DNA from: a virus
Taxonomy: Duplodnaviria > Caudoviricetes
Length of the DNA: 64,000 nt
Strand: one strand, 5' to 3'
IMG/VR virus record: IMGVR_UViG_3300036762_000065
Span: 32,001 to 96,000 of that record
A program made the position numbers and the translations under genes. Shown here piece by piece: positions 962 to 64,000 of this stretch. The number at the start of each line of letters is the position of its first letter. The first letter of the stretch is position 1. The notes under the pieces are model-generated. The model was not told the origin of the DNA. It was given only the letters and a program-made list of their open reading frames with translations, and made no database searches.

Positions 962-1309
962 ATGTTGTCTGATTTTTACTTACTTACAGGAATGATAAAC
1001 GAGATCATAAGTATCTCCGTTTTACTCTATAGTGCTTACGCTATTTATAGGGTATTTACCTGCATACCTAACTCCAAACAGCGTAACTTAGCCGTACTTC
1101 CTTTAGTAGTTATATTTTTGCTATCTCTACACTATTCCTACGCGCAAATGCTTTGGGTACTAGAGTCTAAAGGCGCATCCGTAGGAGAATCAACAGAGTT
1201 GGAGTGGACAATACATGAGGCTATCAGTTTTGTGTTATATTTCCACTTCATTAAAGTATATACGGCTATTGCCGCACATAAAAAATTAAATTTAAGGAGA
1301 GGTATATGA
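962..1309 (+). CDS. Small membrane protein (~3 TM helices)
   Basis: Three hydrophobic segments and a basic C-tail. ATG 962 follows AAGGTG. A holin-like role is possible but unsupported. Confidence 0.5.
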   Translation: MLSDFYLLTGMINEIISISVLLYSAYAIYRVFTCIPNSKQRNLAVLPLVVIFLLSLHYSYAQMLWVLESKGASVGESTELEWTIHEAISFVLYFHFIKVYTAIAAHKKLNLRRGI

Positions 1310-2664
1310 GAGTGTTAGTATCGACAAGTGCAGCACTGAGTGCCGCTGCTAAAAACAAAATACAGAAAGCAGATTGGTTTGACTATAAAGGCAGAAAGGT
1401 ATTGTTTGATAATCACCACAAGTCTTATGATATAGACATAGCGAAAGGTGATAAAGTAGGGTTTATCCCTAATTCCAACGGCACTTACACTCTGTTGCAT
1501 TCAGACGATCCTGCAATCTATTTCAAAGTGTCTTCCGCAGAGCATGATGCGGTAGTGTTAAAATCTGTTCCTTACTACGGGCTAGTGCAAAAAGTACCGG
1601 TAATCTCTGATAAAAAACTTCTTACCTTAAGTTTTTCAGATAGGCATTCCGCAGTACTTTTAAATTCACTTACTGTAGCTAAATTGAAGCAGTTGTGTGA
1701 GTTGCGCGGTATTACAGGCATTTCTAAGAAACCGGAACTCGTTAGAGCCTTGGTCAAAGCAGACAAGACAGGCACTAAGAAAACTGCCGCAGCTCCTGCT
1801 AAAAAAGCCAACTCGACTCGAAGAGGAAACGGTAAAGTAGAGATAACTACACCGAAAGCACCTTTAACCAGACCCTCTAAACCTGTTCAACCTAAGACAG
1901 TTAAACCTAAGGTAAACCCTTCTGAACTCAAAGAAGGTGTTATTGTTAGTGTTAAGATAGAGGATGAAACTGTACAAGCAACCGTTGTAGAAGATGCTGT
2001 AGGAAGTAGAGTTCGTGTTGTTGCGAAAAAAGGTAGCACTAAGAATATGCCTATTTTTGTTGATATATCTAGTATCAATCGCATTGTTCCGCAAAAGGTT
2101 AAAGAACTAACACCGCTACAGAAAGAAAAAGCAGACTATGACACTATGCACGAATTAACAGGTGCCGGAACCGTTGTACGTCATAGAGGTGTGGAATATG
2201 TTGTTGTTTACAAACACAGTCGAAAGGCTACGAGTAAAACACCGTTCGACAATAAACTTGCCCTTGTTCCGATAGATGAAACTAAACCGTTGATAACATT
2301 GGACGTAAATAACTTAGAACACTTGCAAAGTATGTCTATTGATACTTTGAGTTTAGGTAAGTATAACGAGTACAAAGGAATTTTTGATAGGCGTAAATCT
2401 GAACTCGATGAAAAATCCAATGCCGCTGCCGCTATCAACAACGCACAGATTGCGAAGTTCGGTGTAAAAGAAGGAGATTCTACTTCATATCGCTTTCCAA
2501 ACGGTGCTGTGCAATTTGTTATTGTCCGAGCTATAAACTACGAAAAAGGTTTGATAGCAATAAGAGAAGGGTCTAAACTCAGATGGTTGCCAGGTAAGAA
2601 CATAGAGTATATTAAACGTACTGGTGACACTGAAATAAGCATGGATGGTAGCATGGGAAAGTAA
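1306..2664 (+). CDS. Multidomain basic protein with SAP/HeH-like DNA-binding motif and KOW/SH3-like domains; putative head-cargo protein; zero-frame product of a frameshift gene
   Basis: SD AAGGAG. LNSLTVAKLKQLCELRGITGISKKPELVRAL at 1660-1752. K/P/A-rich linker. Ends in G GGA AAG TAA. Confidence 0.65.
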   Translation: MRVLVSTSAALSAAAKNKIQKADWFDYKGRKVLFDNHHKSYDIDIAKGDKVGFIPNSNGTYTLLHSDDPAIYFKVSSAEHDAVVLKSVPYYGLVQKVPVISDKKLLTLSFSDRHSAVLLNSLTVAKLKQLCELRGITGISKKPELVRALVKADKTGTKKTAAAPAKKANSTRRGNGKVEITTPKAPLTRPSKPVQPKTVKPKVNPSELKEGVIVSVKIEDETVQATVVEDAVGSRVRVVAKKGSTKNMPIFVDISSINRIVPQKVKELTPLQKEKADYDTMHELTGAGTVVRHRGVEYVVVYKHSRKATSKTPFDNKLALVPIDETKPLITLDVNNLEHLQSMSIDTLSLGKYNEYKGIFDRRKSELDEKSNAAAAINNAQIAKFGVKEGDSTSYRFPNGAVQFVIVRAINYEKGLIAIREGSKLRWLPGKNIEYIKRTGDTEISMDGSMGK

Positions 2665-8057: not shown

Positions 8058-14054
<5,997 letters not shown>

Positions 14055-32770: not shown

Positions 32771-32791
32771 TCGGGTTATTTGGAGATCAAC

Positions 32792-49584: not shown

Positions 49585-50715
49585 ATGAGTAAGGTAGCAA
49601 TATACACAATTGCAAAAAACGAATCCAAACATGTTGATCGCTGGTATGAAAGTGCTAAAAGTGCTGACGGTATTTTTGTACTTGATACAGGAAGCACTGA
49701 TAATACTTTGGAGTGTTTGGCAAAACATAAGGATATAACTGTATTCACTGCTGAATTCACACAGTTTCGTTTTGATCTTGCTCGTAATTTTATTCTTAAT
49801 CAAATACCGGAAGACTATGACTGGTGTGTATTTTTAGACATGGATGAAGTGTTTGAAGAAAATTGGCGCGAGTTATTGGAAGAAGAGATTACAACAAATA
49901 CCACAGCTACCTGTTTCAACGTGTTTTTTGTTTATTCACGTACACCTGATGGGTCTCCTGACACAACTTATATGCGAACAATGGTACACAAGAACGCATT
50001 ATATGATTGGTACTATCCTGTACACGAACTTCTTAAGTGTAAAGGAAGATCGGTCGAAATAGATACAAGTATAAAGGCATTCCATTTACCAGATGTTTCT
50101 AAGGAACGTACTCAGTATTTACCGTTGTTGGAACTCTCTGTACAAGAGAATCCAAACTCTTCAAGGGCATGTCAATACCTCGCAAGAGAGTATATGTACG
50201 ATAAACAATACCAACGTGCCCTTATGTTTTTCCAGAAACATATTAATATTGAAGACTCTCCTGTATTACGAAGTGAGTCACTTAGGTACATGGCAGAGTG
50301 CAATGTTAGTTTAAATCAAAACAAACTTGCAGAATGTTGTTATTTACGTGCTATAGCAGAAGCTCCTAGCCATAGAGAACCTTGGGGAGATTGTGCTGAT
50401 TTTTACCACAGAGTCAAAGACTACGAGTCGTGTTTAGGAATGGTTAGTGGCATGTTACGCATACATGATATGCCACTAGATTCTGTTATACGTAAAGATG
50501 CATACTATAGTTCTTGGCCTTACCATATGGGTGCTGTGTGTTACCATAACTTAAAAGCCACAGAACTAGCGGTTGAGTATATTAAAGAAGCTCACAACTT
50601 AAGTCCTAATAACCCTTATGTGCTGTCTGACTATGTTACAATAACTAAGACTTTGCCTAGTAATATCAAAATTCAAGGTGTCCGACATGAAGAAAATACA
50701 GATACAGTTGCATGA
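49585..50715 (+). CDS. Glycosyltransferase family 2 with C-terminal TPR repeats
   Basis: IAKNE; VLDTGSTD; RFDLARN; FLDMDE; VHE; TPR-like helices. Confidence 0.9.
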   Translation: MSKVAIYTIAKNESKHVDRWYESAKSADGIFVLDTGSTDNTLECLAKHKDITVFTAEFTQFRFDLARNFILNQIPEDYDWCVFLDMDEVFEENWRELLEEEITTNTTATCFNVFFVYSRTPDGSPDTTYMRTMVHKNALYDWYYPVHELLKCKGRSVEIDTSIKAFHLPDVSKERTQYLPLLELSVQENPNSSRACQYLAREYMYDKQYQRALMFFQKHINIEDSPVLRSESLRYMAECNVSLNQNKLAECCYLRAIAEAPSHREPWGDCADFYHRVKDYESCLGMVSGMLRIHDMPLDSVIRKDAYYSSWPYHMGAVCYHNLKATELAVEYIKEAHNLSPNNPYVLSDYVTITKTLPSNIKIQGVRHEENTDTVA

Positions 50716-52162
50716 GAGTACATCAAAAGGCGCACCTAGTTCCCGATATAAGCCGGCTAAGTATAAACCTACAGACGGCTCAAAAAACCTAGAACGTAAG
50801 CTGGGAGAGAAAGAATTTTTAAAGCTCGCACAGGCGCAGAAGCTTAGGTATTTAAAAGCTTTCCCTAATTCTAGTCACCGCTTTTTGATGAAAGATGCTC
50901 CTGAAAAGAACAAGCACTTTGCAATAAAGAAAAAGGCTTTCAATAAACCGAAGCAAGATATTGTTGTACATGACAATAAGTTACCTGCAACAATAAAGAT
51001 AAAGCAGCAAGAGCGAGATAGAGACCAAGCCGCTACTGAGGAACAAGAGTATAAAAAGGACTTCAAGAATTTCATTAACAGAGAGTCTGTAGGAGCTATC
51101 CAAAAATTAAATCCTAAAGATTTAATGGTTGCAGGTAACACAATACGAAATAACGTTCCTCAGATATCTACTGCGGTCTACGATGCGTTTGAAAATAAGA
51201 GCGGTATCTTTGAAGCAGGATTGAGTTCTGTGCAAAAGATATTCAACGGTGAAAAGATTGATCCTAAAGAACGCAAATCAGCTACTCAAGTTATGGCTAC
51301 AGTAGCCAAGTATGCAATGCTTGCTGCCGGTATTGCTATTCTTGCTACCGCTGCCGCTCCTGCTGCTTTCATTGTTGCTCGCATGATGCACGAAAGCTGG
51401 GGTTCTTTGGACGAAGCTAGTGGCGACAAAGCTATTAGAGACAAGAAGAGAGCGGACAAGAAAGCCGCTAAAGAAGAGATAAGACGTTTAGAGGAAGAAG
51501 CAAGAACGCCGGAAGAACGATATGAAGAAGAGAAAGCTAGAATAGCAAAACTTTTAAATAGCGGTAAATTGAGCCAAAGAGCTTTTGAAAAAGCTATGGA
51601 GAAAGTTGAAGACGATTTCGCCGCAGATAAAGAAGACTATGAAGACAACAAGCGAATGCGGGAGCGTGGAGAAATCCCTAAACGTAAACGTAAAAAGAAA
51701 GTTGAGGATTATGTAGAAGCCGCTACTTTATACGAAGCTATAGACGACCCTGTTTCCGTGACATTGAACAATTTAATTGTAGGTGTCGGAGATTTCATAA
51801 CACACATGGATTTAGATGAGTTGAAAGAAAGGGCTGGTGGCACATTTAAAGGCATGGCCTCAAACAACAGTTATATGTCTGCAATTGTACGTAATGTGTG
51901 TATACAGCATGATTGTTATTTGCCTATTCAAGATATAGGTATAGGACTGCACGGAACTTGTCACTCTAATGATATAAATAAATGGTTGTCTGATCTAAGG
52001 GATGTATTTAACGCACACGGCTATACATTTATAGAACCTGATGCTACAACTTGTACTATAAATAAAGGTAGTTTGTATAAATCGTATAGGTCGGAACTAA
52101 ACGAGACAGTTTCATTCACTTTCAATAGACAATCTCGACTGTTTGCCATAACCTATAACTAG
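50687..52162 (+). CDS. Hypothetical protein with hydrophobic Ala-rich helix; putative head/ejected protein
   Basis: Starts MKKIQIQLHESTS after AAGGTG; AMLAAGIAILATAAAPAAFIVA segment. Confidence 0.55.
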   Translation: MKKIQIQLHESTSKGAPSSRYKPAKYKPTDGSKNLERKLGEKEFLKLAQAQKLRYLKAFPNSSHRFLMKDAPEKNKHFAIKKKAFNKPKQDIVVHDNKLPATIKIKQQERDRDQAATEEQEYKKDFKNFINRESVGAIQKLNPKDLMVAGNTIRNNVPQISTAVYDAFENKSGIFEAGLSSVQKIFNGEKIDPKERKSATQVMATVAKYAMLAAGIAILATAAAPAAFIVARMMHESWGSLDEASGDKAIRDKKRADKKAAKEEIRRLEEEARTPEERYEEEKARIAKLLNSGKLSQRAFEKAMEKVEDDFAADKEDYEDNKRMRERGEIPKRKRKKKVEDYVEAATLYEAIDDPVSVTLNNLIVGVGDFITHMDLDELKERAGGTFKGMASNNSYMSAIVRNVCIQHDCYLPIQDIGIGLHGTCHSNDINKWLSDLRDVFNAHGYTFIEPDATTCTINKGSLYKSYRSELNETVSFTFNRQSRLFAITYN

Positions 52163-52170
52163 GAGACTGT

Positions 52171-52530
52171 ATGCCAAGAATTTCATATCGTTGTTTACCT
52201 AACCAACGCCATAAACCTATCGCAGAACGAACGCACTGGGACGTAATGTACGGTAAAATTAAAATAGGTTCAATATCAACAGACGGCAAAGATATATCAG
52301 AAGACAGGTCACACTCTTTACGTATATGGAAAGCTAAACTTATCACCGGATTTAATGCATTCGAGTTTCCACATGCAGATAACGATGACATTAAGGACGA
52401 GCCTTACTTTGTCACGAACGATAACGAGTTTGATGAGCACAACCTGGAACTTTTAAACCCTTTGTATATGACTATGGCTGAAGCTAGAAAGTTTATTGTA
52501 GGGGTTTTTAAAGATAAAAACATGAAGTAG
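52171..52530 (+). CDS. Hypothetical protein
   Basis: SD AGGAG. Confidence 0.55.
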   Translation: MPRISYRCLPNQRHKPIAERTHWDVMYGKIKIGSISTDGKDISEDRSHSLRIWKAKLITGFNAFEFPHADNDDIKDEPYFVTNDNEFDEHNLELLNPLYMTMAEARKFIVGVFKDKNMK

Positions 52531-52962
52531 TTGTGGTATATTACGCTGTATAGCAATGATGTGCAATGGAATATAATTACTGACTTATGTAAATATAAAA
52601 TAGGCGTTGCTTCTGGATATTCTTACGGTAATGAATTCGACAATACCGACTGCTTAAAATCCACTGTCGAGGCAGTTACTTTGGAAGAGCAGAATTTAAA
52701 GAAGTTGTTGGCCAAAACTATAGACATTACGTTTATGGACGACACTGCCGCAACATACTTGATTAGAAAAAATCTAAACTCAAGCAGTAAGTTAATTAAA
52801 TTAGGAACTAGACAACCTTTAACATCGTTGAGTGTACATCTCGTTTGCTCTAAGAATAACACCTCATGTTATAATGTTATCCGTAAGTTTAATGAAGGAC
52901 TGCGTATACTTAACGCTGACGGCACTATAGATTCCATAGTACGCAAATCGTTAGTATATTGA
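52531..52962 (+). pseudogene. Truncated periplasmic substrate-binding protein (family 3-like), C-terminal portion
   Basis: DLCKYKIGVASGYSYGNEFD...QNLKKLL...ID...HLVCSK...FNEGLRIL..DGTID.I. No signal peptide or N-lobe; TTG directly after the upstream TAG, with no SD. Confidence 0.6.
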
Positions 52963-53009
52963 AAAATACTAATTTTATTGTAACACAAACCAACGCCAGG
53001 AAATTACAA

Positions 53010-53534
53010 ATGAAAATATCTTTAGATTTAAACGGCTATGAGTCTGATTCTGCCGAAGCTTTAACTAGAGACGAAAAATCTCTACAAACTGCAATTACAA
53101 GGCTCGCCCGCTACAAAGAAAAAATAGCTGCTACTGTTACTAGAATACGTACACTAAAGTCAAAAGTAAAAGCTGCCGGACGTAGCGGCAGAGTAGCTGC
53201 TAAACCAAAAGCCGGTAAAGCTCCTGCTGCTAAACCAAAAGCCGGTAAAGCTCCTGCTGCTAAACCTCTCAGCAAACGAGGAGCAGCTCAAAGAGAAGCC
53301 GTTAAAGCTCCTGCTAAAGCTCCTGCTAAACCTGCTGCTGATGCTAAGTCACCTGCTCAGGTACACAGAGAACTTGTCCAGAAGTATGCTGCGTTGAATA
53401 AACGTGTGGAAGCAGCATACAAACGAAAGGATTACATTAAAGCTAAAAAGTTAAATGCTCAACTTGTTGAGTTGAATAAAAAGGTTAAGGCTGCGATGAA
53501 GGCAGATATGGAATCTCGTGTAAGCAAAAAATAA
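53010..53534 (+). CDS. Histone H1/AlgP-like Lys-Ala-Pro-rich DNA-binding protein
   Basis: ATG 53010 follows AGGA; AAKPKAGKAP repeats encoded by a 30-nt tandem repeat (53196-53266). Confidence 0.65.
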   Translation: MKISLDLNGYESDSAEALTRDEKSLQTAITRLARYKEKIAATVTRIRTLKSKVKAAGRSGRVAAKPKAGKAPAAKPKAGKAPAAKPLSKRGAAQREAVKAPAKAPAKPAADAKSPAQVHRELVQKYAALNKRVEAAYKRKDYIKAKKLNAQLVELNKKVKAAMKADMESRVSKK

Positions 53535-53561
53535 ATAAACCGAAACATTTAAGGTAACACT

Positions 53562-54311
53562 ATGAGCCACATGCAATCTATAAGTTTTTCTTTAGGTCAA
53601 AAACCAACAGAGCTTCGCGGAATCAGCGGCAAATCTAACTCTATTAATCTAAACAAAGAAGTTACAGGAGCCTCTGAAGGTCGAACTATAGATGCTAATA
53701 TGTGGCTTCCTCGTGCAGCCGAAGTATACCAGATAAGTCCTAAGCTTTCTGATTATATACTTGTTCCTGTACCTAGTCTTATAAGTGATATAAGTAATAC
53801 AAACGGCGACTCTGTTTCTAAAGCAGAGTTGCTTCGCTTTCATCCTGATCAAGGCTGTCTTGCATATCAAACGTGGAAAGGGAAGCCTACCCATGTAGAA
53901 CACGCCAATAAGGATATAACTAAAGCTAAAGGAATTATCCTTGACGTTTTCTTACGTCCTATGGCTAGATATCACGGAAACCATGTTAAAGTTATAAAGC
54001 TCCTTGCATTTGATAGAACTAAAGATGAGACTCTTTGCAATAACATACTTGAGCGTAAGGTAAATACATACAGTTTAGGTATGTGGTTCAAGAGTTACAC
54101 CTGCACAATATGTAACAATCAAGTAGGTCAAAACTTCGGGCGTATGTGTGTACATACAAAACCTAGAAAACCTATCTATCAGCAACCGGATGGTAAATTG
54201 GCTTACAGACAGTGTGAGAATATCATAGGTTTCGAGACCTCTGTAGTATTGGACCCTGCATACGTAGTAGCCTTGTCCGATCATTTGATTGATGTTAGTA
54301 AATTTGCTTGA
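53562..54311 (+). CDS. Prohead (capsid maturation) protease with Zn-finger insertion
   Basis: NGD; GKPTHVEH; YSLG; CTIC...CVH; FETSVVLDPAY (HK97-type ExSxVxxPA); upstream of scaffold and capsid. Confidence 0.75.
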   Translation: MSHMQSISFSLGQKPTELRGISGKSNSINLNKEVTGASEGRTIDANMWLPRAAEVYQISPKLSDYILVPVPSLISDISNTNGDSVSKAELLRFHPDQGCLAYQTWKGKPTHVEHANKDITKAKGIILDVFLRPMARYHGNHVKVIKLLAFDRTKDETLCNNILERKVNTYSLGMWFKSYTCTICNNQVGQNFGRMCVHTKPRKPIYQQPDGKLAYRQCENIIGFETSVVLDPAYVVALSDHLIDVSKFA

Positions 54312-54318
54312 TACTCCT

Positions 54319-54756
54319 ATGATACAGATTCAGATATCTTTGTCTGCTAATGAATTGAAGGTTGAATCCGTTGTTGAGAATATGTACAAGGAGCTCCGCA
54401 GTACAAGAACAGGTAAAAGCTCTTGTCACACGCGAACTATAGCCTACATAAAAGAAAAACCTTGTATAGATTGTCAAATAGTTATCACATACGCACCTGA
54501 TGTTAGGAATGAAGGTAACGAATTTGCTGTACATTCATTTGTAAAAGAAAATGCAACAGATACTATTGAGTTCGACAGTCAGCACGGAACTATTAGAAAT
54601 AACATTTATTACAATACAGAAGTAATAAAATCAAAAGGTAAGGAGTATAAAATACCCAGACAGCATTTAATGAAGCACTCCTATAACCTAGATATTTCTG
54701 CGTTTAAGGCAGCTAAAAGTGCTGCCGAAGCTGTATCATTATTAAGAAAGACTTAA
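54319..54756 (+). CDS. Hypothetical protein with MIQIQISLS leader and possible Cys-His-Asp triad
   Basis: SSCH...AVHSFV...EFDS. Confidence 0.45.
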   Translation: MIQIQISLSANELKVESVVENMYKELRSTRTGKSSCHTRTIAYIKEKPCIDCQIVITYAPDVRNEGNEFAVHSFVKENATDTIEFDSQHGTIRNNIYYNTEVIKSKGKEYKIPRQHLMKHSYNLDISAFKAAKSAAEAVSLLRKT

Positions 54757-54836
54757 CATCCGCTCCGAATTAATACTCCGAGGTCACCGCTCGTTACTTC
54801 CCTTATGCGGTTTTTCTAAAGCACCCTGTAGTATTG

Positions 54837-54923
54837 CGCTTATTTTACGGGACAGACTATGCCGTCCCAGCAATATAGTTTTTGTACAACTACACGCACC
54901 GTACAATTACCGTAAAATAAGCG
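54837..54923. repeat. Perfect 14-bp inverted repeat enclosing smaller stems
   Basis: CGCTTATTTTACGG (54837-54850) / CCGTAAAATAAGCG (54910-54923). Confidence 0.85.
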
Positions 54924-55089
54924 TCCCTCTCTATTTTAAACTGCATAAAAAATCCTTCTTATTTTTTCTTATTTTTCCTGTTTTTCTTAATTTATACTTG
55001 AATTTGATAAAATGTTTTTTATATTCGTTTTGTCTATTTGCGACCTTACTCGGTCGTCATTTAACCTAACTCCATCCTAGGAGATTGAA

Positions 55090-57483
55090 ATGTCTAAGAC
55101 CCGAACAAACGACACCAAAACAGTACTTAGAGGTATCGTAGTTGCCGGGAACTCACGACAAGATGTTGAGGAGAACTATCGTTCAGTAGTAACTGGAGTG
55201 TCTGTAAAAGCACTACAGCCTGAAGATAATTCTTTCACTATTTTAAGCAACGCCGATGCCGACATTAGTTTATTTAATCCACTTACAGGTATGTTGGATT
55301 TAGTAACCGCAAGTGACGATTTAATTGGTCGTATGGAATTCCTAGCTTCTGATAGTGAACAAAAAGTTACTGCCTTCTACTCGCTATGTAGCGACAGTGA
55401 AGGTAACGGCTGCAACTCTCATCTTATCGCTGATGACCCTGAGCTACTGAAACATTGCCCAGTATGTGCATCAACATTAAAAATGTTGGATGAAGATGAT
55501 ATCAATGAACTACTTAGTAGTTCAAGTGACGATGAAGACGATGATTGTCCTGATTGCTCCGAAGATAGTATTATTTCGGTTGCCAATTCGTATGAGGAAG
55601 CCCAAGAAGCCTACTACGAACTTGTATCAGGTACGGCAGAACCGTTTGGAATTCGTTGCGAATACGCCACAATCCTGTCAAATGTAGACTCTTCTGAGTT
55701 TTCACACAGTCCATTTACATCAAAAGCTAGTGCAGATGTTGATTTGGATGATTTTGACACAGAAGCTATTGCTAGTGCTGGAGCTGGAGAACAAACTGCC
55801 AACTACTATGTATGTGCAAACACAGAAGGTTGTGGTAAACATATTATTTCCAGTTCAGATAATCCTGTATTCTGTCCTTCCTGTTCTTCCGGTCTCATTG
55901 AGCCTGAAGATGATCCTGAGGCGATTGCTTCTGATAAGGAAACTGAGTTGGGTAAGGAGGATGCTATTAATACTCTGTTAGGCGAGAAAGGCAACATAGT
56001 TGCAGTTGCCGCTACTGCAAAAGAAGCAAAAGCTCAATTTATCAGTCTATCAAGATTAGAAAACGATGATGTTCATACATATGATTGCGAAGGTACTGTA
56101 GTCGCATCTAATATTGATAACTCGGAGTTTTCCTTCAGTCCTTTTGACGGTGAATCCGTTTCAGAGGTTGATGTTTCTGATGACTTTGAAATTGAAATCA
56201 TTGCATCCGGTTCCAAGCAAAATATCGAAGCGCATCATTACGTATGTTCCGCAGATGATGAATGCGGTATGCATATAGTTGCTTCTGTAGAAGTAGAAAG
56301 CTGCCCTTCATGTTCTTCCGGCCTTATTGAGCCTGAATCAACTTCTTCCGACGATGAAGAGGACGATTACGATGAAGAGGATGAAGAGGAAGACTTTGAA
56401 GACGATGACGAAGATGATGACGATGACGACTTCGACTCTGAGTCTGCTGCCGAAGAAGAGGAATATATAAACTCTTTATCTTCCGAAGACCTCGATGATT
56501 ATTTAGACTCTTTATCTTCGGATGACGAGGATGATTCTGACGATGACGAGGATGATTCTGACGATGACGAGGATGATTCTGACGATGACGAGGATGATGA
56601 TGATGGTGATGATGACTCGGACAATACCTTATCAGTCTCTTCTGTAAAATTCAAGTCTTCTAAGAGAAAGCCGGAAGACTCTACCGTTGCTGTTAGCTTG
56701 TTGTCTATCGCATCTTCCTATGAAGAATACGATGCAGCTAAACTTGAAGTATCTTGTGCAGGTACAATCCAAAACGAAACAACTTGGATTGCATTTTATG
56801 ACGGAATGCCTGTAGCAAAAGCCACAGCGTCTAATGCACTTAAGCATTCTGATATCTTCAATAAGCCTCTGTTCGGTAACGCCTTCTTAGCTACCGCTAA
56901 AGAAAATTCCGTGCAAGAAGCTTTAAGTGCTTTCGGCTTTAAAGAGTTTTGTCCTGAGTTTAACGTGGAATCACACGTTGAAAACGAGATAGCTACTCAG
57001 GTAGAAGCCAAAGTTAAAGATGTTGAAGATAAGCATCAAACAGAATCTAATGATTACAATGAACGTATGCAATCGGCGCTTGCTACTGCTGCTCAAGGTA
57101 TCAATAGAAACTTCTTCAAAGGTATCGTTAACCCTAACCCTATTAAGACAGCACTTGCTTCAAGTTTGGCAGCCGCTGGTTTACGGGAGCCGGAAGCTAT
57201 TATAGCTAAAGCCTTTGCAGATCATTCGGACGCATATCATAAGAATTTGATTAATAAAGCTTCGGAAATTGTAGCTAAGTCTATTGAAATTCAAAATGAA
57301 CTTGCGGAAGCCGTTGCCGGTAGTAACCCAAGCACAAATACTGATACTGTTGTCCCTATAGGCACCCCTGCTAAATTACCTACGCAGAAACCTATGGAAT
57401 CAACATCGTCTGTATCTTCTGGGGAAAAACCTGCATTCTCTCGTATGGATGCAATCCTGGCTGGCTTAGGTCAGCGGAAATAA
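55090..57483 (+). CDS. Probable capsid scaffold/core protein with three Zn-ribbon repeats and an acidic tract
   Basis: Between protease and capsid genes; three C..C...CPxC repeats; D/E tract; C-terminal coiled coil. Confidence 0.65.
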   Translation: MSKTRTNDTKTVLRGIVVAGNSRQDVEENYRSVVTGVSVKALQPEDNSFTILSNADADISLFNPLTGMLDLVTASDDLIGRMEFLASDSEQKVTAFYSLCSDSEGNGCNSHLIADDPELLKHCPVCASTLKMLDEDDINELLSSSSDDEDDDCPDCSEDSIISVANSYEEAQEAYYELVSGTAEPFGIRCEYATILSNVDSSEFSHSPFTSKASADVDLDDFDTEAIASAGAGEQTANYYVCANTEGCGKHIISSSDNPVFCPSCSSGLIEPEDDPEAIASDKETELGKEDAINTLLGEKGNIVAVAATAKEAKAQFISLSRLENDDVHTYDCEGTVVASNIDNSEFSFSPFDGESVSEVDVSDDFEIEIIASGSKQNIEAHHYVCSADDECGMHIVASVEVESCPSCSSGLIEPESTSSDDEEDDYDEEDEEEDFEDDDEDDDDDDFDSESAAEEEEYINSLSSEDLDDYLDSLSSDDEDDSDDDEDDSDDDEDDSDDDEDDDDGDDDSDNTLSVSSVKFKSSKRKPEDSTVAVSLLSIASSYEEYDAAKLEVSCAGTIQNETTWIAFYDGMPVAKATASNALKHSDIFNKPLFGNAFLATAKENSVQEALSAFGFKEFCPEFNVESHVENEIATQVEAKVKDVEDKHQTESNDYNERMQSALATAAQGINRNFFKGIVNPNPIKTALASSLAAAGLREPEAIIAKAFADHSDAYHKNLINKASEIVAKSIEIQNELAEAVAGSNPSTNTDTVVPIGTPAKLPTQKPMESTSSVSSGEKPAFSRMDAILAGLGQRK
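56521..56598 (+). repeat. 21-nt tandem repeat (DDEDDSD x3 plus partial)
   Basis: GATGACGAGGATGATTCTGAC repeated. Confidence 0.9.
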
Positions 57484-57531
57484 CCCCATTTTTTAGATAA
57501 AAATCTTAATATGCCCCAGGAGGGATTGTAC

Positions 57532-58215
57532 ATGATTAATCAAAAATATACTCGTATCTTTGATACCGAGCACCACAACGTAGAAACTGCTGCAAGTATT
57601 CCTGATGAAGGTATTGCGTTAGTTTTCGTTAAAGAGAATGACCTTACTGTTGTTACTCAAAGTAAGGGTGTTGCAGGTGAAGTTTTTGCAGGAGTTTCTC
57701 TTGCTCGTAACACACCTCCGTTGTTCGTACCATTCGTGTATGAAGGTGTTGTGGACTCAGCCTCAGGTCTTGAGTTGCCGCGCACTCCAATTACAGGTCA
57801 GATCCTTGTTAGGGTTGACGGCGCTGCTGCTACTATAGTTGCAACAGTACCTGCTTCTGCAAGCGAAGTTCAATTAGTAGATAAAAACCTAACATTCCAC
57901 GCTGCTGCTAACGGTAAAACTTTGGCTGTACAGTTCATGTATGAGCCTACTGTAACAGAAGCTCGTCAGTATAAAGGTGATGTTGCTGTTGGCGGACTGT
58001 CTGCTACTGCACAAGGCGTTATCGGCGTTATCACACGAGGTACTGTGTCTACTACTTACTTTAATGCTGCTGATGATTGGACAGGTGCTCTTTCTGTTAA
58101 GCTCGGTGCTGACGGTATGTTCACTGTAAGCGGCCCCGGTGAAGTAGTTCCTAACTGTACAGTTATGTCTTCGCCTAGTGCAGGTAACCCAACCTTAGGT
58201 TTACGAATTGGTTAA
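57532..58215 (+). CDS. Capsid decoration/cement protein
   Basis: ATG 57532 follows AGGAGG; immediately before the capsid gene; beta-rich (EVFAGVS, IGVITRG). Confidence 0.6.
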   Translation: MINQKYTRIFDTEHHNVETAASIPDEGIALVFVKENDLTVVTQSKGVAGEVFAGVSLARNTPPLFVPFVYEGVVDSASGLELPRTPITGQILVRVDGAAATIVATVPASASEVQLVDKNLTFHAAANGKTLAVQFMYEPTVTEARQYKGDVAVGGLSATAQGVIGVITRGTVSTTYFNAADDWTGALSVKLGADGMFTVSGPGEVVPNCTVMSSPSAGNPTLGLRIG

Positions 58216-58268
58216 TAAGCCATTTTTGTCTACGCTATAAATTTAATTGAATTTTCGGAGAAACATAT

Positions 58269-59360
58269 ATGAAATCCAATACACAAGGCGCCAGAATGGT
58301 TCTTGCTAACGGCGACCCAATTACCGAACTGCGTTTGGGCAAATCGCACTCTAGCGCACTCGACCAAAAAACTGGCGAGTTTAACGCACACAATACAAAA
58401 GAACTTTTGCAACAGATCAGTGGATTGATGCAAGCGGTTGCTAACGGTCAGGTTGTTGAAGACACTATGCAGTCTGTTAGTTCTTCTGATGAGCGCCGTG
58501 AACTTCTTGCGAGTGCCATGAACGATGAAACAGGACAACAGTGGGCAGCACTTGGTGCAGGTCTTGCTAGACAGATCAACGAGCAAACTGACCGTGAAGG
58601 TTTCTTGCGCCGTATCTGTAGCGGTAATACGTTACGTCAAGGCGAAATTGCACGTATTCCAATGCCACAGCATGATACGTTTGCTGTAGTAGCAACCACA
58701 GCATCTAACATGGGCTACCAGACTATCCGTCAGCGTCTTTTTACTCCTGATGAGTTTGAGATTCAAGCTAACGTTCGCGTTGAAGCTTTGGACATCGAAC
58801 AAGTTAACGGTGATCTTTTGGAAAACGCTTACAACGACGGTCTGCAAGCTATTATGGTTGCAGAAGATCGTCTATGGAGACAAGCTGCGGATATGACTGT
58901 CGGTATCACTAACGATCTGGAATTGATCGCAGGCGAACTTACAACTAAGTCATTAGGTAACTTACGTCAAGCTGTAAGCCGTTGGAATTTACCTGCAACT
59001 ACTGCACTGATTTCAAATGATTTCTGGTCAGACATTATTGGAAGTAACGACTTCGCTACATTCCTTGATCCTATTACAAAATATGATCTTGCTATGAACG
59101 GTCAGTTGGGTACTCTAGTAGGTCTGAGTTTGATCACGGATGCTTTCCGTCAGCCAAACCAGAAAGTACTTGCTCCTGGTGAAATTTACATTCTTGCAAG
59201 TCCTGAAAATCATGCATCGTATACTACCCGTGGCGGTATCCGGTCTACTCCTACTACTGGAGCTAACCAAGGTAACAGCACACGCGGTTGGTTTATGTCA
59301 GAACCGTTTAGCTTTGTACTCGCTAACAATCGTTCTGTAGCAAAAGGAAAACGTATCTAA
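58269..59360 (+). CDS. Major capsid protein (HK97 fold)
   Basis: Protease-scaffold-decoration-capsid order; IMVAEDRLW and GQLGTLVGLSLITDA motifs; strong codon bias; terminator follows. Confidence 0.85.
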   Translation: MKSNTQGARMVLANGDPITELRLGKSHSSALDQKTGEFNAHNTKELLQQISGLMQAVANGQVVEDTMQSVSSSDERRELLASAMNDETGQQWAALGAGLARQINEQTDREGFLRRICSGNTLRQGEIARIPMPQHDTFAVVATTASNMGYQTIRQRLFTPDEFEIQANVRVEALDIEQVNGDLLENAYNDGLQAIMVAEDRLWRQAADMTVGITNDLELIAGELTTKSLGNLRQAVSRWNLPATTALISNDFWSDIIGSNDFATFLDPITKYDLAMNGQLGTLVGLSLITDAFRQPNQKVLAPGEIYILASPENHASYTTRGGIRSTPTTGANQGNSTRGWFMSEPFSFVLANNRSVAKGKRI

Positions 59361-59387
59361 CAAATACGTTTTTTAAAGAACAAAATG

Positions 59388-59423
59388 AAAGCAGGGTAGA
59401 TCAGCGTCCTCCCTGCTTTTTTT
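59388..59423 (+). terminator. Rho-independent terminator after the capsid gene
   Basis: AAAGCAGGG...CCCTGCTTT then a T run. Confidence 0.8.
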
Positions 59424-59447
59424 ACGTCTAGTTAATGCAGGAATTGT

Positions 59448-59741
59448 ATGAAAATACAAATATCATTATGCGGCAAGGTAGTCAATAATAAGAAACATAG
59501 GTATAATCTTCCTGTCTCTAAAAAACACAGCCCGGAAATAAAAGAACTTCTTGCACAACTAAAGGACGTTCGCGCATCTATAAAAGCTATAGGTAGACAC
59601 ATAGCAAAAGGTAATGAATTTATACATATACGCATAGGCTATAAAAAAGACACACCTATAAAAACATTGCAAAAACAAGAACAAAAGATCATTTCTAAAC
59701 TTCACGCTTTAGGTTTGGATGTAAACCTTTTCAAGGGATAA
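59448..59741 (+). CDS. Small basic protein with MKIQISLC leader
   Basis: SD AGGA; Lys-rich. Confidence 0.55.
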   Translation: MKIQISLCGKVVNNKKHRYNLPVSKKHSPEIKELLAQLKDVRASIKAIGRHIAKGNEFIHIRIGYKKDTPIKTLQKQEQKIISKLHALGLDVNLFKG

Positions 59742-59796
59742 GTTAAACACAACAGAATTTAATAATTTAATGTATAATCAACCAGTTAGGTGTCCC

Positions 59797-60369
59797 ATGA
59801 GCGAACTCAAAGATATGTTAGCACTGTCTTTTCTTGCGTTTAAGCAAGGTAAGTTTGATGAGGCGTCTAAGTTTTTTGTGTCTGCAATGGGCATGGAAGG
59901 CTTGGATACTTTCATAAGTGAAATAACAAATAATCCCCCTGTTGCAAAAAATGTTGTAAATGTACCAAACACCGAAAATACGTTTGCCCCTTCATTATCA
60001 GGTACAGACGATATTGATACTATAGTGTCTAGGGTGTCTTCTATATTTGAAGCTAATGCTAGTTCTTTGTACGACTTAGGCGATTACGAGGAAGAAGCTA
60101 GAAGTTCGTTTGAAGATGACGAAGACGGTACTGTACTTTCTTCGGAGGAGTGTTGTGGCAATGCTCCGTGTAAGCGCACAGCAAGCGGTACTTGCCCTGT
60201 ATATAACCCAGAACCTGAAGAGTACGAGAACAAAGAAGAAGAACCTGAGAGCGATGAAGATTTTGTTCCTGTAACTATACAGTTAGATGAACTAGATGAC
60301 AATAGTGTGGTTGTTGCAACAGGATATATCAAGTTGAAACCTATAGGTCATGTAAAACTTAAATTGTAG
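59797..60369 (+). CDS. Acidic hypothetical head-region protein
   Basis: ATG 59797 follows AGGTG; TAATTT motif upstream. Confidence 0.55.
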   Translation: MSELKDMLALSFLAFKQGKFDEASKFFVSAMGMEGLDTFISEITNNPPVAKNVVNVPNTENTFAPSLSGTDDIDTIVSRVSSIFEANASSLYDLGDYEEEARSSFEDDEDGTVLSSEECCGNAPCKRTASGTCPVYNPEPEEYENKEEEPESDEDFVPVTIQLDELDDNSVVVATGYIKLKPIGHVKLKL

Positions 60370-60376
60370 GTGATTT

Positions 60377-61045
60377 ATGGACAATGAATTAAATTTCAAT
60401 CTATTGTCAGGAACCCAGTACGCTAACACGCCACTCTATGCTAGTTTTCTTGGCCTAAGACAGACGTTTGCAAAGCATTTGGGTATTAGTTCAAATATAC
60501 CTATAATTACACACAACAACCAAAAAGCTATATTACGCAAAGAGCGTAATTCAAGCTATCCTTATGCGTACATTCTATTGAGTGGTCTTAAAGTTGTTAG
60601 AGACCAAGAGCCTAATAAAAGTATTGCACGTAGAGGTAGCCATATATCTACACAATCCGCTACTAATGCAACAGTAGCCAAAGGGTATTTGTTTAAAGCG
60701 GAAATAAACTTTGAACTACACTGGCTGCACAATCAGATAACCGATGTAATTATGTTTATAGAAAAAATGTCTATACTAGGTGCAATAGACGCATTTACAT
60801 TCAATGTCACTGTGCCTAATGTGCCTGAGTGGGTAGCAACTGTAGAACTTCCTGACGGAGAGATAGCAATACCTCGTGCAGAACTCGATGACCCCGCTGA
60901 ACCGGGTGCAATGGACATTGCAATTCAGATGGTTCTAAAGACTAGAATAGGTATTGTTAAAGATGTTCCAAAAGTAAACAATCAAGGTCTAGTTACACAA
61001 ACTGTCGGTGTAGGTAACTCCTCTACAGGGGAAATTGAATCGTGA
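60377..61045 (+). CDS. Virion structural protein, possibly tail-completion/terminator-like
   Basis: SYPYAYI motif and beta-rich pattern; late-gene context (inference). Confidence 0.4.
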   Translation: MDNELNFNLLSGTQYANTPLYASFLGLRQTFAKHLGISSNIPIITHNNQKAILRKERNSSYPYAYILLSGLKVVRDQEPNKSIARRGSHISTQSATNATVAKGYLFKAEINFELHWLHNQITDVIMFIEKMSILGAIDAFTFNVTVPNVPEWVATVELPDGEIAIPRAELDDPAEPGAMDIAIQMVLKTRIGIVKDVPKVNNQGLVTQTVGVGNSSTGEIES

Positions 61046-61302
61046 AAATCCAGATAAGTTTATCCAATCAAGCAGCTAAGAACAATATAAAAACACAACG
61101 TATGCAAATAAAAAGTCTGAGGGACAGACTGTCTCGGGTACGTGATGTTATGAAGCGGTTGCGAGAAAGGAAAAAAAGATTTGAACAACAGTATGAACAA
61201 CAGTCAGAAGCAATAAACGTTAAAATACAAAACATAGAACAAGCCATAGAACGTAATCAAAGTAGAATAGCTAAAAACAAACAAGAGGTGGATACCAAAT
61301 GA
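61042..61302 (+). CDS. Small coiled-coil protein with MKIQISLS leader
   Basis: GTGA overlap with the upstream stop; heptad pattern. Confidence 0.55.
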   Translation: MKIQISLSNQAAKNNIKTQRMQIKSLRDRLSRVRDVMKRLRERKKRFEQQYEQQSEAINVKIQNIEQAIERNQSRIAKNKQEVDTK

Positions 61303-62771
61303 AATTTAGACCTCTTTCAAAAACAGTAGTTACTGAAATACGAAGTTTTGTTGTAGACTCTGTTTCTAAAATAGGTCTGTATAGACAAACTGTATCTGCT
61401 CCTATAGATTTAGCAAAACCGCTAGACGACAAAGATTTCAATATAAGTGCAACGGAGTTTCTTGATATTCAAGATGCCAGTGTACTACTAGCAATAAGTT
61501 GTCCGGAACCTATCCGTGCTATATTTACCGGCTCAGGTCCTGTTGTAATAACACCTCCTGTAGTTACCCCTATACAATACCACACAGCTACACTCACTAC
61601 AGAAAGTTTTGTTGAAGCAGGTAACCCTATTTCTGTAACAATATCTGATGTGGACCTAGAGCAAGTTGTCTCTTCTATCGGTGCTGTTGTTTATAACACA
61701 GATTCAGGCGAAACTGAGCATGTGGAGTGCTTTAGGCAAATAGACGGCACTTACACAGGCACACTAGACACAGTTAACAGTAGTGTTGTCGGCACAAACT
61801 TCGATAATTCTATGAGTTGTGTTTTAGGCCAAACGTTACATGTTATATATAGCGACCCGAAGAGTAGTGCAGGCGTAAGAGAGAACGTAACTAATATTGT
61901 TACTGTTCTAAGCCCTACAGAAACCGCAGTAATAGAAACAAGGGATTTCGTATCTATATCAAAACCTGTGCCTATCACTATACACGATAAAGACGCAACA
62001 TCACCGACTATACCTATATCTGTTCGCAATCTTATTACAGGTGAGCAAGAGATTTTGAACGCTTCGCTTATGGAAGCAGGAAAGTATACCGTAAGTTGTG
62101 CTACAAAAGTGTATAACGGAATATCGTTCGACAGTGTTGACGGTGCTCTTGGTGTTCTAATAGGTCATCAGATACAAATAGATTATACTGACACTAGAGA
62201 CATAAACAACTCTACTTCGGTTGTAAGTAAAATAGTTGATATTGTTGGAACTGTTACAGAGGTAGGTTCAATTGATGTGGCAACCACAGTAACCATTGAT
62301 ACTGCTCTTATGTTGACTATAAACGACTACGATCTTGTAGGACAACAGTTGAGCGTTACTGTAAGTAATATAGCCAGCGGCGAGTACGAGATAGTTACAC
62401 TTAATGAGACTGTATTCGGTAGTGGTGTGTTTAAAGGTAACTTGCCTGTAACAACACAAACTTCAGGAGCTAACTCAGACGGTGCTTTACTGGCAGCGGT
62501 AGGCAATAGACTACGTGTTGTGTACGTGGATGTCGGAGGTTCACTAACGACTGTGGAGAAGTTTGTAGACGTTGTTGATGTGGTTATTCCTGATGATCCT
62601 ACCCCGACTCCTGATCCTACCCCGACTCCTGAGCCGGAAACCGTAGAAGCTACAGGCACTATTGAGTTTTTAATAAACGGCTCGTTCTTCTTGAACGGCA
62701 CGTTCAACGGTACTATCCGCCTAGTAGGTTTAAATCAAGAACCAACACGTTGTAAGGTGATCTTGTCATAG
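61299..62771 (+). CDS. Virion surface protein with three inserted beta-sandwich repeats and Pro/Thr linkers
   Basis: Three (I/V)TIxDxD...GExE...G.Y/F...D..L/M...G..L/I.V/I.Y.D repeats; linkers PVVITPPVVTP and PDPTPTP. Confidence 0.65.
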   Translation: MKFRPLSKTVVTEIRSFVVDSVSKIGLYRQTVSAPIDLAKPLDDKDFNISATEFLDIQDASVLLAISCPEPIRAIFTGSGPVVITPPVVTPIQYHTATLTTESFVEAGNPISVTISDVDLEQVVSSIGAVVYNTDSGETEHVECFRQIDGTYTGTLDTVNSSVVGTNFDNSMSCVLGQTLHVIYSDPKSSAGVRENVTNIVTVLSPTETAVIETRDFVSISKPVPITIHDKDATSPTIPISVRNLITGEQEILNASLMEAGKYTVSCATKVYNGISFDSVDGALGVLIGHQIQIDYTDTRDINNSTSVVSKIVDIVGTVTEVGSIDVATTVTIDTALMLTINDYDLVGQQLSVTVSNIASGEYEIVTLNETVFGSGVFKGNLPVTTQTSGANSDGALLAAVGNRLRVVYVDVGGSLTTVEKFVDVVDVVIPDDPTPTPDPTPTPEPETVEATGTIEFLINGSFFLNGTFNGTIRLVGLNQEPTRCKVILS

Positions 62772-62780
62772 GATAATGTT

Positions 62781-64000
62781 ATGATTAAAATATGGATTTC
62801 TCTGTCAAAAAACATCTACAACCAAGATGAGATAGGCCAACAAATAACTGACTTACAAGCAAGGACTACCAACCAACGTGTTAAAACATGGTTGAAGAGC
62901 AATCTTCGCAAGTATCTTTTAAATGAGTACGAACACACAAAACCTGTCCGTCGTGGAAAAGCAAACGATCCTGAATGGGTAAATAGTGCTATCCAAAAGA
63001 AAGACCTGTTTAAGATTGACTTTAAGTCGCGTCAATGGTCTGCCTTCCGTATGGACCTAGAGCACGCCATTTCTTATCTTGAAACAGTACGTGACCCATC
63101 ACGAGTATCAGTACCTCTTGCTATCAAAGGAGGCGTTGACTTACTCGAACAGGAAAATAAAAAAGCCTCTTCCGATGAAGACCTAGAAGGAATAGAAGTA
63201 CTCCATAAGTTTCCTGATGGTTATACCTTTGTTAATGTTGTTTCCAAACAAGCACTACAGCGAGAAGGAAAGTTGATGCAACATTGTGTAGGCCAAGAAC
63301 AACAAGCATACATAAGAAATGTAGCCAAAGGAACATTACAAATATGGAGTTTAAGAGACAAGAGTAATAATCCGCACTGTACTATAGAATACATACCTAA
63401 GACAAAGAAAATAAATCAGATTAAAGGGAAGCAGAATAACGGCGTAGTTAGCAAGTACGTTCCTTACGTTAAAAAAGTCTTGGAAATAGCTAAGAAAAAG
63501 AAGATGGTAACTGAAATAGAAGACCTTATTAATATAGGTATGGTTGAAGTTGAAGGCAATTGGTATGATATACATAACCTACCTCCTGGTTTAAAAGTAG
63601 AAGGTGATTTAGATTTAGAAGACTTACAAATTAAAGTATTACCGGAAGACTTGGAAGTAGGTGGTAGTTTAAATTTAGCAGGTACACAAATTACATCCTT
63701 ACCTGAAGACTTAAAAGTAGAAGGTGATTTAGATTTATCAGATTCAAAAATTACAGTCTTACCGGAAGACTTGGAAGTAGGTGGTAGTTTAGTCTTAAGA
63801 AATACACAAATTACATCCTTACCTAAAGGTTTAAAAGTAGGTGGTAATTTAGTCTTAAGAAATACACAAATTACATCCTTACCTGAAGGTTTAAATGTAG
63901 GTGGTAATTTAGATTTATCAGATTCAAAAATTACAGTCTTACCTAAAGGCTTAAATGTAGGTGGTAATTTAGATTTATCAGATTCAAGTATTACATCCTT
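62781..64000 (+). CDS. PcfJ-like domain protein with 20-aa leucine-rich repeats (3'-truncated; absent from the ORF track)
   Basis: Translated by hand: MIKIWISLS...ALQREGKLMQHCVG...WSLRDKSNNPHCTIEY...QIKGKQN, then LPEDLEVGGSLNLAGTQITS-type repeats; no stop before the window end. Confidence 0.85.
   Translation, partial: MIKIWISLSKNIYNQDEIGQQITDLQARTTNQRVKTWLKSNLRKYLLNEYEHTKPVRRGKANDPEWVNSAIQKKDLFKIDFKSRQWSAFRMDLEHAISYLETVRDPSRVSVPLAIKGGVDLLEQENKKASSDEDLEGIEVLHKFPDGYTFVNVVSKQALQREGKLMQHCVGQEQQAYIRNVAKGTLQIWSLRDKSNNPHCTIEYIPKTKKINQIKGKQNNGVVSKYVPYVKKVLEIAKKKKMVTEIEDLINIGMVEVEGNWYDIHNLPPGLKVEGDLDLEDLQIKVLPEDLEVGGSLNLAGTQITSLPEDLKVEGDLDLSDSKITVLPEDLEVGGSLVLRNTQITSLPKGLKVGGNLVLRNTQITSLPEGLNVGGNLDLSDSKITVLPKGLNVGGNLDLSDSSITS
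63579..64000 (+). repeat. 60-nt tandem repeats (~7 copies) encoding LRR-like units
   Basis: TTACC(T/G)...AAGTAG(G/A)(T/A)GGT...TTTAG recurs every 60 nt. Confidence 0.9.

Follow-up and report, generated by a model that had tools for sequence, protein, structure and literature searches.

A common N-terminal leader on unrelated proteins of a Lu11/PaBG/NCTB-lineage jumbo phage, a possible head-loading tag

Introduction

In phage T4, IPI, IPII, IPIII and Alt carry a capsid-targeting sequence (CTS) that is removed by the gp21 protease (Mullaney and Black 1996, as summarized in PMC5694885; PMC3012670), and the T4 internal proteins are diverse and defence-related, with only the CTS in common (PMC3012670, PMC5694885). 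Here we analyse a 64,000-nucleotide stretch of phage DNA (the window, which spans bases 32001-96000 of one 241,706-bp contig, IMG/VR record IMGVR_UViG_3300036762_000065), in which otherwise unrelated proteins begin with a similar peptide of 8-9 residues, hereafter the leader. An earlier note, made from the letters of the stretch alone, had read this peptide as a portable tag that loads accessory proteins into the phage head for co-injection, an idea that our analysis partly supports in that it bears out the tag and its portability.

Other described systems also bear on the comparison. The giant phages phiKZ, 201phi2-1 and SPN3US have long N-terminal propeptides on head and ejection proteins (PMC5694885, PMC7411985), and phage P1 holds DarA, Hdf, DarB and other proteins of its Dar system in the head for anti-restriction (PMC9024508, PMC12810830). 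The source of the window is a jumbo phage of the Lu11/PaBG/NCTB lineage; its major capsid protein (MCP) is 63-67% identical to those of the Pseudomonas phages Lu11, PaBG and HRDY3 (66% to both Lu11 and PaBG) and 53% identical to that of phage NCTB, and a megablast search with window positions 50000-64000 gave no DNA-level match to phage records. The coordinates singled out by the note coincide with the head-assembly module, which comprises a protease, a scaffold-like protein, a virion protein and the MCP (Table 1).

Results

The leader and its members

The leader is N-terminal, has the consensus M-x(1-2)-I-Q-I-[S/A]-[L/I/V]-[S/A], and defines 14 strong members, five in the window (genes starting at 50687, 54319, 59448, 61042 and 62781) and nine elsewhere in the genome, as well as about four weak members in the genome. 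All eight N-termini quoted in the note are present where it had placed them, and the nine strong members outside the window make the sharing wider than its list. Five of the eight are strong members and two, at 1306 and 53010, probably belong to the set as weak ones, but the protease start MSHMQSISFS (53562) is not a member, being instead the conserved N-terminus of the protease family (consensus S-x-S-F-S-I-G), which is disordered in the structural model. Two tagged genes stand in tandem at genome position 146677 (minus strand), starting MIPIQISLS (80 aa) and GTG-KILISLS (87 aa), with the stop codon of the first and the start of the second overlapping by one base (TAGTG).

Chance is excluded as the source of this sharing. 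Across all six reading frames of the genome the string 'IQISL' appears six times, and five of these occurrences sit 2-3 codons past the start of a real open reading frame (ORF). When all six frames were scanned with a position-specific scoring matrix derived from the copies, 14 of the 18 top matches were N-terminal sites, and a permissive pattern was found in 19 of 303 predicted genes compared with 7 of 1105 internal-Met windows. Unsupervised clustering of N-termini gave a single cluster of 12, whereas internal windows gave clusters of at most five. Past residue 9 the tagged proteins do not align with each other, and the leader is their sole common feature.

Leader dialects and virion evidence in related phages

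Related phages carry leaders of the same kind in different forms. In Lu11, a cluster of 12 genes starts with MKIQLAVA followed by a small residue, the PaBG leader reads x-I-K-I-N-L, frequently with E-A-V-A-A after it, and the NCTB leader reads MKI[IV]SISA. Around protease homologues in 39 non-redundant IMG/VR loci, the pattern opens 64 of 905 ORFs, compared with 5 of 3613 internal-Met windows, and arrays of pattern-bearing genes flank the protease in such loci. Sequence comparison further indicates that orthologous tagged proteins (cargo) carry the leader dialect of their own phage. For example, a 287-aa cargo protein starts MKIQISISG here and MKIQLAVAG in Lu11 (E 6e-22), and Acb1-like proteins start MIPIQIAIA here, MVSLSS in the related genome G001, MMIKLSM..EEATAA in the related genome G002 and MQIKVAM..SAEAA in PaBG. 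Orthologues of the 50687 protein likewise keep a leader-like start (MFISIAWAFKD in Lu11, MTEIVISGFES in G001 and MLVSLSLATPQ in G002). The leader is uniform within a genome and differs between genomes, which argues for a single phage-encoded partner.

At the loci of distant protease homologues (IMG/VR L139, L141, L146, L147, L159, L163 and L164) other common leaders were found, such as MKALDRLEVVAG, MNYIRYIETA and MKNELKALYKK. Leader-tagged arrays beside the head protease may therefore be general, with lineage-specific peptides.

In PaBG, one leader protein is known from the virion itself. PaBG gp83, which starts MLIKINLLEAVAAK and has a pI of 10.3, is the product of the gene directly ahead of the scaffold gene; Coomassie staining reveals it in the virion, and it is one of 14 proteins found in purified virions (PMC7412058 Table 1). 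No leader is present on gp191, gp261 or gp263, the other PaBG virion proteins without an assigned function. The presence of gp83 in the virion is supportive of head loading, not decisive.

A further counterpart of a PaBG virion protein lies in the first part of the window. Purified PaBG virions contain gp202, whose orthologue here is the 1998-aa helicase encoded at 8058-14054 (phrog_21391). The interval between the connector (89-943) and the helicase gene includes weak-leader starts at 6710 (MKISVIDT) and 7510 (MAINLKEA) and an SVSS-bearing protein at 4561-5442, and the genes of this interval may form a block of packaged proteins.

Selection on the peptide

What is conserved in the leader is the peptide, not the DNA, and the leader is under selection at the peptide level. 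TCN as well as AGY codons encode its Ser positions, the third positions of its codons are free to vary, and 40.0% of same-residue pairs use identical codons, compared with 36.1% expected from genome codon usage. Because synonymous codon identity is near this expectation and the Ser codons are mixed, the copies are old and peptide-selected rather than recently spread as DNA. Upstream of the leader genes, the only common element in the DNA is a ribosome-binding site, often placed over the stop codon of the previous gene; with this, freely varying third positions and codon identity at the neutral level, an explanation by a DNA repeat or promoter was rejected. The portability that the note had claimed for the peptide is upheld by this peptide-level selection together with the lack of alignment among the bodies.

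Most copies start 3-9 nt past the upstream stop codon or overlap it, and the stop overlaps a TAAGGA-type ribosome site. Such an arrangement would suit a common start that stems from expression or gene capture, that is, a favourable translation start or nascent chain, or the remnant of recombination behind an existing start, and three tagged genes (59448, 61042 and 62781) count as insertions when compared with the otherwise collinear modules of PaBG and Lu11. We nevertheless consider this origin very unlikely. Synonymous sites are randomised, so that no recent DNA copying of the leader has occurred; the late genes with the strongest expression (MCP, sheath and tube) lack the leader; the same residue pattern recurs within the scaffold, as described below; and the dialects differ among phages while being uniform within each.

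The tagged proteins

Compared by sequence, the tagged bodies are unrelated to each other and turn over fast. Those that lack a family are mostly small, Lys-rich or coiled-coil proteins, and the leader lies outside the domain in every recognisable case (Acb1 from about residue 16-24, KMPT-N from residue 13 or 23, PcfJ from residue 138).

Among the members in the window, the 50687 protein, a conserved cargo, matched no Pfam or PHROG family. The 53010 protein, which the note had described as histone-like, has Lys/Ala/Pro repeats in keeping with that description but no family match in Pfam or PHROGs. For the 54319 protein, no homologue except itself was found among 5.8 billion proteins, and no match in the PDB; its slot is occupied elsewhere by an Acb1-like gene (G001), by the gene for the virion protein gp83 (PaBG) or by genes starting MKIISISA or MKIVSISA (NCTB). 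The PcfJ and leucine-rich-repeat (LRR) body noted earlier is confirmed for 62781, in which PF14284 PcfJ matches residues 138-225 with E 1.1e-13 (the full length of this protein was taken from the genome). In the 1306 protein, PF20294 KMPT-N matches residues 23-86 (E 1.8e-14), and because the domain begins only at residue 23, the leader is external to it. KMPT-N is found on two tagged proteins, one of which also has a SprT-like peptidase domain.

Outside the window, the cargo gene at genome positions 154245-154778 encodes an Acb1-type 2H phosphoesterase, which matches PF23474 with 64.9 bits against a cut-off of 27, aligns with the solved Acb1 structure 9q2g_A (E 2.4e-07) and keeps both H-x-T motifs, LHCTL and PHITL. 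This protein is predicted to be a cyclic-nucleotide phosphodiesterase acting against the cyclic-oligonucleotide-based antiphage signalling system (CBASS), and the Acb1-like and PcfJ+LRR cargo are plausible candidates for counter-defence. The second gene of the tandem pair at genome 146677 has a weak Hdf-like match (phrog_1620, E 0.008), and the 287-aa cargo has no usable match among PDB sequences or in the protein atlas.

Ahead of one of these genes there is a strong hairpin with a T-run (AAAGCAGGG...CCCTGCTTTTTTT) at 59385-59424, located 3' of the MCP gene and 24 nt before 59448. It escaped a simple terminator scan owing to its long loop, and is likely an attenuating terminator behind the most abundant transcript.

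The leader might also be the first strand of a common fold or motif unrelated to virions, such as a ribbon-helix-helix domain or a sliding-clamp peptide (QLxLxL). By eye, the leader strand of 54319 and 62781 leads into a helix in a ribbon-helix-helix-like manner, and the Q-I-S-L of the leader resembles the clamp motif Q-L-S-L. The beta-clamp motif reads QL[SD]LF or QLxLxL, and Gln is its most conserved residue, whereas four strong members of the leader set have W, L, L and H in place of Q; a clamp-binding motif was rejected on this ground. No tagged protein gave a ribbon-helix-helix match in Pfam at E 0.01, and this domain was rejected as well, several members being disordered, acidic or running straight into other domains. 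In most bodies the leader is not followed by helices or passes directly into another domain (Acb1, KMPT-N, a 60-aa acidic protein), and a fold unconnected with virions is scarcely credible.

The leader core in protease, scaffold and capsid protein

Structural modelling predicts that the head maturation protease has the fold of T4 gp21. Its AlphaFold2 (AF2) model, with a predicted local distance difference test (pLDDT) score of 84.7, aligns with T4 gp21 (5jbl_C) over 141 residues with Z 10.0 and a root-mean-square deviation of 3.0 Å (VIA-align), compared with Z 4.9 for the next unrelated match and Z 4.7 for the protease of herpes simplex virus 2. Residues 1-10 and 233-249 are disordered in the model. 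The disordered last 17 residues (nt 54258-54308) begin directly after V-A-L-S (54267-54278), and this C-terminal stretch of the modelled enzyme could be a self-cleavage tail like those reported for the phiKZ and SPN3US proteases.

The core of the leader recurs in two proteins of the head module that includes this protease, the scaffold-like protein and the MCP. In the scaffold, [IVL][SA][IVL][SA] occurs six times, compared with 1.18 times in shuffles (p 0.002). Lu11 has 13 scaffold sites, compared with 2.9 in shuffles, and the 7-mer QVATASS is common to its MCP boundary and its scaffold tail; in addition, Lu11 N-termini share 13 exact 5-mers with their own scaffold and MCP, compared with two for internal windows. 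In 125 kb of PaBG, EA[VT]A[AS] occurs only in two leaders, at the MCP boundary, three times in the scaffold and in one head-module protein. Maturation takes about 20% off the mass of the PaBG MCP (PMC7412058), and the position of its EA[VT]A[AS] fits this published loss. In the present MCP, SVSS at residues 69-72 (58473-58484) aligns with the Lu11 QVATASS and, on the strength of this alignment, likely marks the propeptide boundary; SVSS occurs five times in the proteome of the present genome, three of them in the MCP and scaffold. The motif common to leader, scaffold and MCP is real as a class, and it may be a cut site, a docking strand, or both.

The AF2 model of the scaffold has strands at residues 12-20 and 160-165, which open two folded domains after disordered acidic linkers, and a disordered tail at 748-785; compared with the PDB, it gave no meaningful match. 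The two motif copies in these strands fit docking better than cutting, because the model places them in the core of folded domains. The leader could be imagined as a donor strand that copies the first beta-strand of the repeated beta-alpha domains in the scaffold (GIVVAG 12-20, SIISVA 160-165), in which case loading would proceed by strand insertion or exchange and the leader would not primarily be a cut site. We regard this version as rather unlikely; if it were true, this jumbo-phage clade would have a simple, lineage-tunable eight-residue plug by which capsids could be filled with arbitrary proteins through a mechanism unlike that of T4.

The scaffold also contains two CxxC...CxxC zinc ribbons, which are invariant in 22 homologues, together with some 120 consecutive residues that are nearly all Asp/Glu. 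The label 'ATPase' given to its family in PHROGs found no support in the present analysis. A 2883-aa tail protein (32780-41431, phrog_14098) is also enriched in the motif, but this enrichment was discounted, being due to tandem immunoglobulin-like repeats with VS[VI]A-ITGP, a sequence that resembles the leader core and so raises the motif counts.

The resemblance between the leader core and the candidate protease sites would also fit a leader that serves as a processing or control element only, for example as an inactivating propeptide or a turnover mark, any packaging being achieved through other parts of the protein. PaBG packages the basic gp191, which has no leader, and the leader is therefore not required for packaging. 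Against a role confined to processing, a peptide of eight residues is too small to cover folds so diverse, the tagged proteins have nothing but the leader in common, and the equivalent peptide in T4 is both address and cut site. We hold such a role to be improbable.

Placement in the genome

Three co-oriented blocks, which together comprise 93 of 303 genes and include those for the head, tail, baseplate and fibres, contain all 14 strong copies (p 4e-8, the blocks having been delimited after the annotations were seen). In support of the note's reading, no leader was found on the replication genes located in the window.

Of the 14 strong copies, nine immediately follow a tail, baseplate or fibre gene, in most cases at a distance of 9 nt, and PaBG gp83, known from the virion as a whole, could have its place outside the head. 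It is therefore conceivable that the leader anchors proteins on the tail, baseplate or fibres and does not deliver them to the head interior, like the short, conserved N-terminal peptides by which some phages dock extra receptor-binding proteins. We find this doubtful, since an Acb1-type phosphodiesterase and small, very basic cargo have no obvious role in a tail, the motif is common to the head scaffold and the MCP boundary, the tagged genes cluster round the head protease gene in many relatives, and fibre proteins have a different N-terminus of their own.

This N-terminus, M-x-LTKTPL-x-MLDA, is common to three fibre-like proteins (genome 142254-143063, 146929-147432 and 148435-149151, minus strand), and its counterpart in PaBG and G002 is MxGLTR[IV]P. 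It is probably a common anchor that docks alternative fibres onto the baseplate.

Table 1. Leader peptides, leader-bearing genes and head-module features (window positions, except where genome starts are given)
Feature	Position	Strand	Basis or remark
Leader MRVLVSTS	1306-1329	+	weak
Weak-leader gene, 452 aa, KMPT-N then SAP domain	1306..2664	+	PF20294, phrog_36535
Leader MKKIQIQLH	50687-50713	+	strong
Leader-bearing gene, 491 aa, hydrophobic segment and coiled coil, conserved cargo	50687..52162	+	leader pattern, orthologues
Leader MKISLDLN	53010-53033	+	weak; AGGA Shine-Dalgarno site 9 nt upstream
Weak-leader gene, 174 aa, Lys/Ala/Pro-rich repeats	53010..53534	+	weak leader
Head maturation protease	53562..54311	+	phrog_18299, E 1e-98
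Leader MIQIQISLS	54319-54345	+	strong
Leader-bearing orphan, 145 aa, variable slot between protease and scaffold	54319..54756	+	leader pattern
Scaffold-like acidic protein, 797 aa, two zinc ribbons	55090..57483	+	phrog_20988, E 8.5e-148
Leader-core copy in scaffold, ISVA	55573-55584	+	
Leader-core copy in scaffold, VAVA	55999-56010	+	
Leader-core copy in scaffold, ISLS	56041-56052	+	
Leader-core copy in scaffold, SVSS	56632-56643	+	
Leader-core copy in scaffold, LSIA	56701-56712	+	
Leader-core copy in scaffold, SVSS	57409-57420	+	
Virion protein	57511-58215		member of head-assembly module
Major capsid protein	58269..59360	+	phrog_2522, E 2.4e-105
Leader MKIQISLC	59448-59471	+	strong
Leader-bearing basic protein, 97 aa	59448..59741	+	leader pattern
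Leader MKIQISLS, GTG start	61042-61065	+	strong
Leader-bearing basic coiled coil, 86 aa, 4-nt overlap with upstream stop codon	61042..61302	+	leader pattern
Leader MIKIWISLS	62781-62807	+	strong
Leader-bearing PcfJ and leucine-rich-repeat protein, 519 aa	62781..64000, continuing to 64340	+	PF14284 PcfJ
Nine strong members outside the window	genome starts 129439, 146919, 146677, 148352, 149404, 154778, 178335, 181317, 183925	minus	strong

Discussion

Taken together, we consider it moderately likely that the leader is a head-loading tag for accessory proteins, comparable to the T4 CTS. This reading is favoured by the restriction of the leader to structural blocks, by the gp21-fold protease, by the dialects and by PaBG gp83. 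Under it, the leader would direct accessory proteins that are made late and change fast into the prohead during its assembly. The peptide would form a short strand in which hydrophobic and small residues alternate, like the openings of the scaffold domains and the MCP boundary, and would dock the cargo on the core of scaffold and protease; the gp21-type protease would then probably clip the leader at or near [S/A]-hydrophobic-[S/A], and the cargo would be retained in the head and exit with the DNA. These steps, from docking and clipping to head residence and injection, are ones that we infer.

Several results weigh against head loading. With respect to placement, nine of the 14 strong copies adjoin tail and fibre genes and not head genes, and with respect to virions, the leader is on one of the 14 detected PaBG proteins, for which the chance expectation is about 27% given roughly seven leader genes. 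With respect to cleavage, all characterised gp21-family proteases cut after Glu (PMC5694885), and the leaders hold none. Glu is also not enriched just past the leader, where 8-9 members have one within 10 residues and about 52% are expected by chance, so that a T4-like cut site at that place was rejected; moreover, the residue directly after the leader varies in the present genome (K, N and R, also small residues). The link between leader and cleavage site, as far as sequence comparison can reveal it, is weaker in the present genome than in Lu11 and PaBG. Exact 5-mers shared between N-termini and their own scaffold and MCP number five here, compared with two for internal windows and a cross-genome mean of 2.5, and are not above controls, and in a longest-common-substring test of the MCP boundary against the scaffold the present genome is not significant, only Lu11 standing out. 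The scaffold is Ser-rich, two of its motif copies are core strands of folded domains (pLDDT about 85-90), and SVSS was picked after the Lu11 alignment was seen. Finally, the Ser/Ala dialect could reflect G+C content instead of co-evolution, and because it may track the G+C of the genome, we do not count it as strong evidence of the latter.

The comparison with T4 shows likenesses in several respects. In both cases a short N-terminal peptide (about 10 residues in T4) is the only common feature of diverse, fast-evolving proteins, the genes are late and often encode proteins of counter-defence (candidate ones in the present phage), a gp21-fold protease is encoded, and the core of the peptide resembles motifs of the scaffold and the MCP boundary. 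However, the leaders have no similarity to MKTYQEFIAE and no Glu at their end, whereas T4 cuts after L/I-x-E; the leader is instead a strand of alternating hydrophobic and small residues, about 16 cargo genes are scattered through head, tail and fibre modules, and the MCP is HK97-type and distantly related to that of T4. Since there is neither a Glu nor a resemblance to the T4 CTS, the leader is CTS-like by its likely mode of action only, and not by sequence.

Similarly, phiKZ, 201phi2-1 and SPN3US are jumbo phages that encode a gp21-type protease and pack many proteins inside the head, the N-termini of which have been proposed to direct them to the prohead. Their propeptides are mostly 20 to more than 100 residues long, are found on paralogues only and end in S/A/G-x-E or A-x-E, whereas the leader described here is 8-9 residues long, is on unrelated proteins and has no Glu. 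The P1 Dar system offers a likeness in purpose, since counter-defence cargo enters the capsid and accompanies the DNA into the cell, although head loading is only proposed here; one tagged protein has the weak Hdf-like match mentioned above, and the PHROG of a neighbouring gene is described as 'released from the phage upon host infection'. P1 loading is hierarchical, depends on DarA and Hdf, and uses a longer N-terminal region of DarB. Unlike in the present phage, no single short peptide is known to be common to all P1 cargo. With regard to cleavage, the herpesvirus assemblin maturation site is (V/L/I)-x-A↓S, and assemblin has the same protease superfold; the candidate sites here, [S/A]-V/T/L/I-[S/A] plus a small residue, with V-A-T-A↓S-S in Lu11, resemble it. 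The phage enzyme, however, resembles T4 gp21 much more closely, and T4 gp21 cuts after Glu.

Conclusions

The leader differs from the T4 CTS in sequence, in lineage and probably in the rule for cutting or docking. If it is a head-loading tag, either the gp21-family proteases or the scaffolds that they serve would have departed from the cut-after-Glu rule of all characterised cases. The leader would then explain why counter-defence-like genes lie within structural operons. The Acb1-type enzyme, as part of the injected set, would be made late and carried to the next cell, where it would be ready before the CBASS alarm of the host acts. The leader would also provide an eight-residue handle for loading foreign proteins into large capsids, in a group with cultured relatives in Lu11 (Pseudomonas putida) and PaBG, and it would allow the injected arsenal of a large, mostly uncultured jumbo-phage clade to be listed from sequence only.

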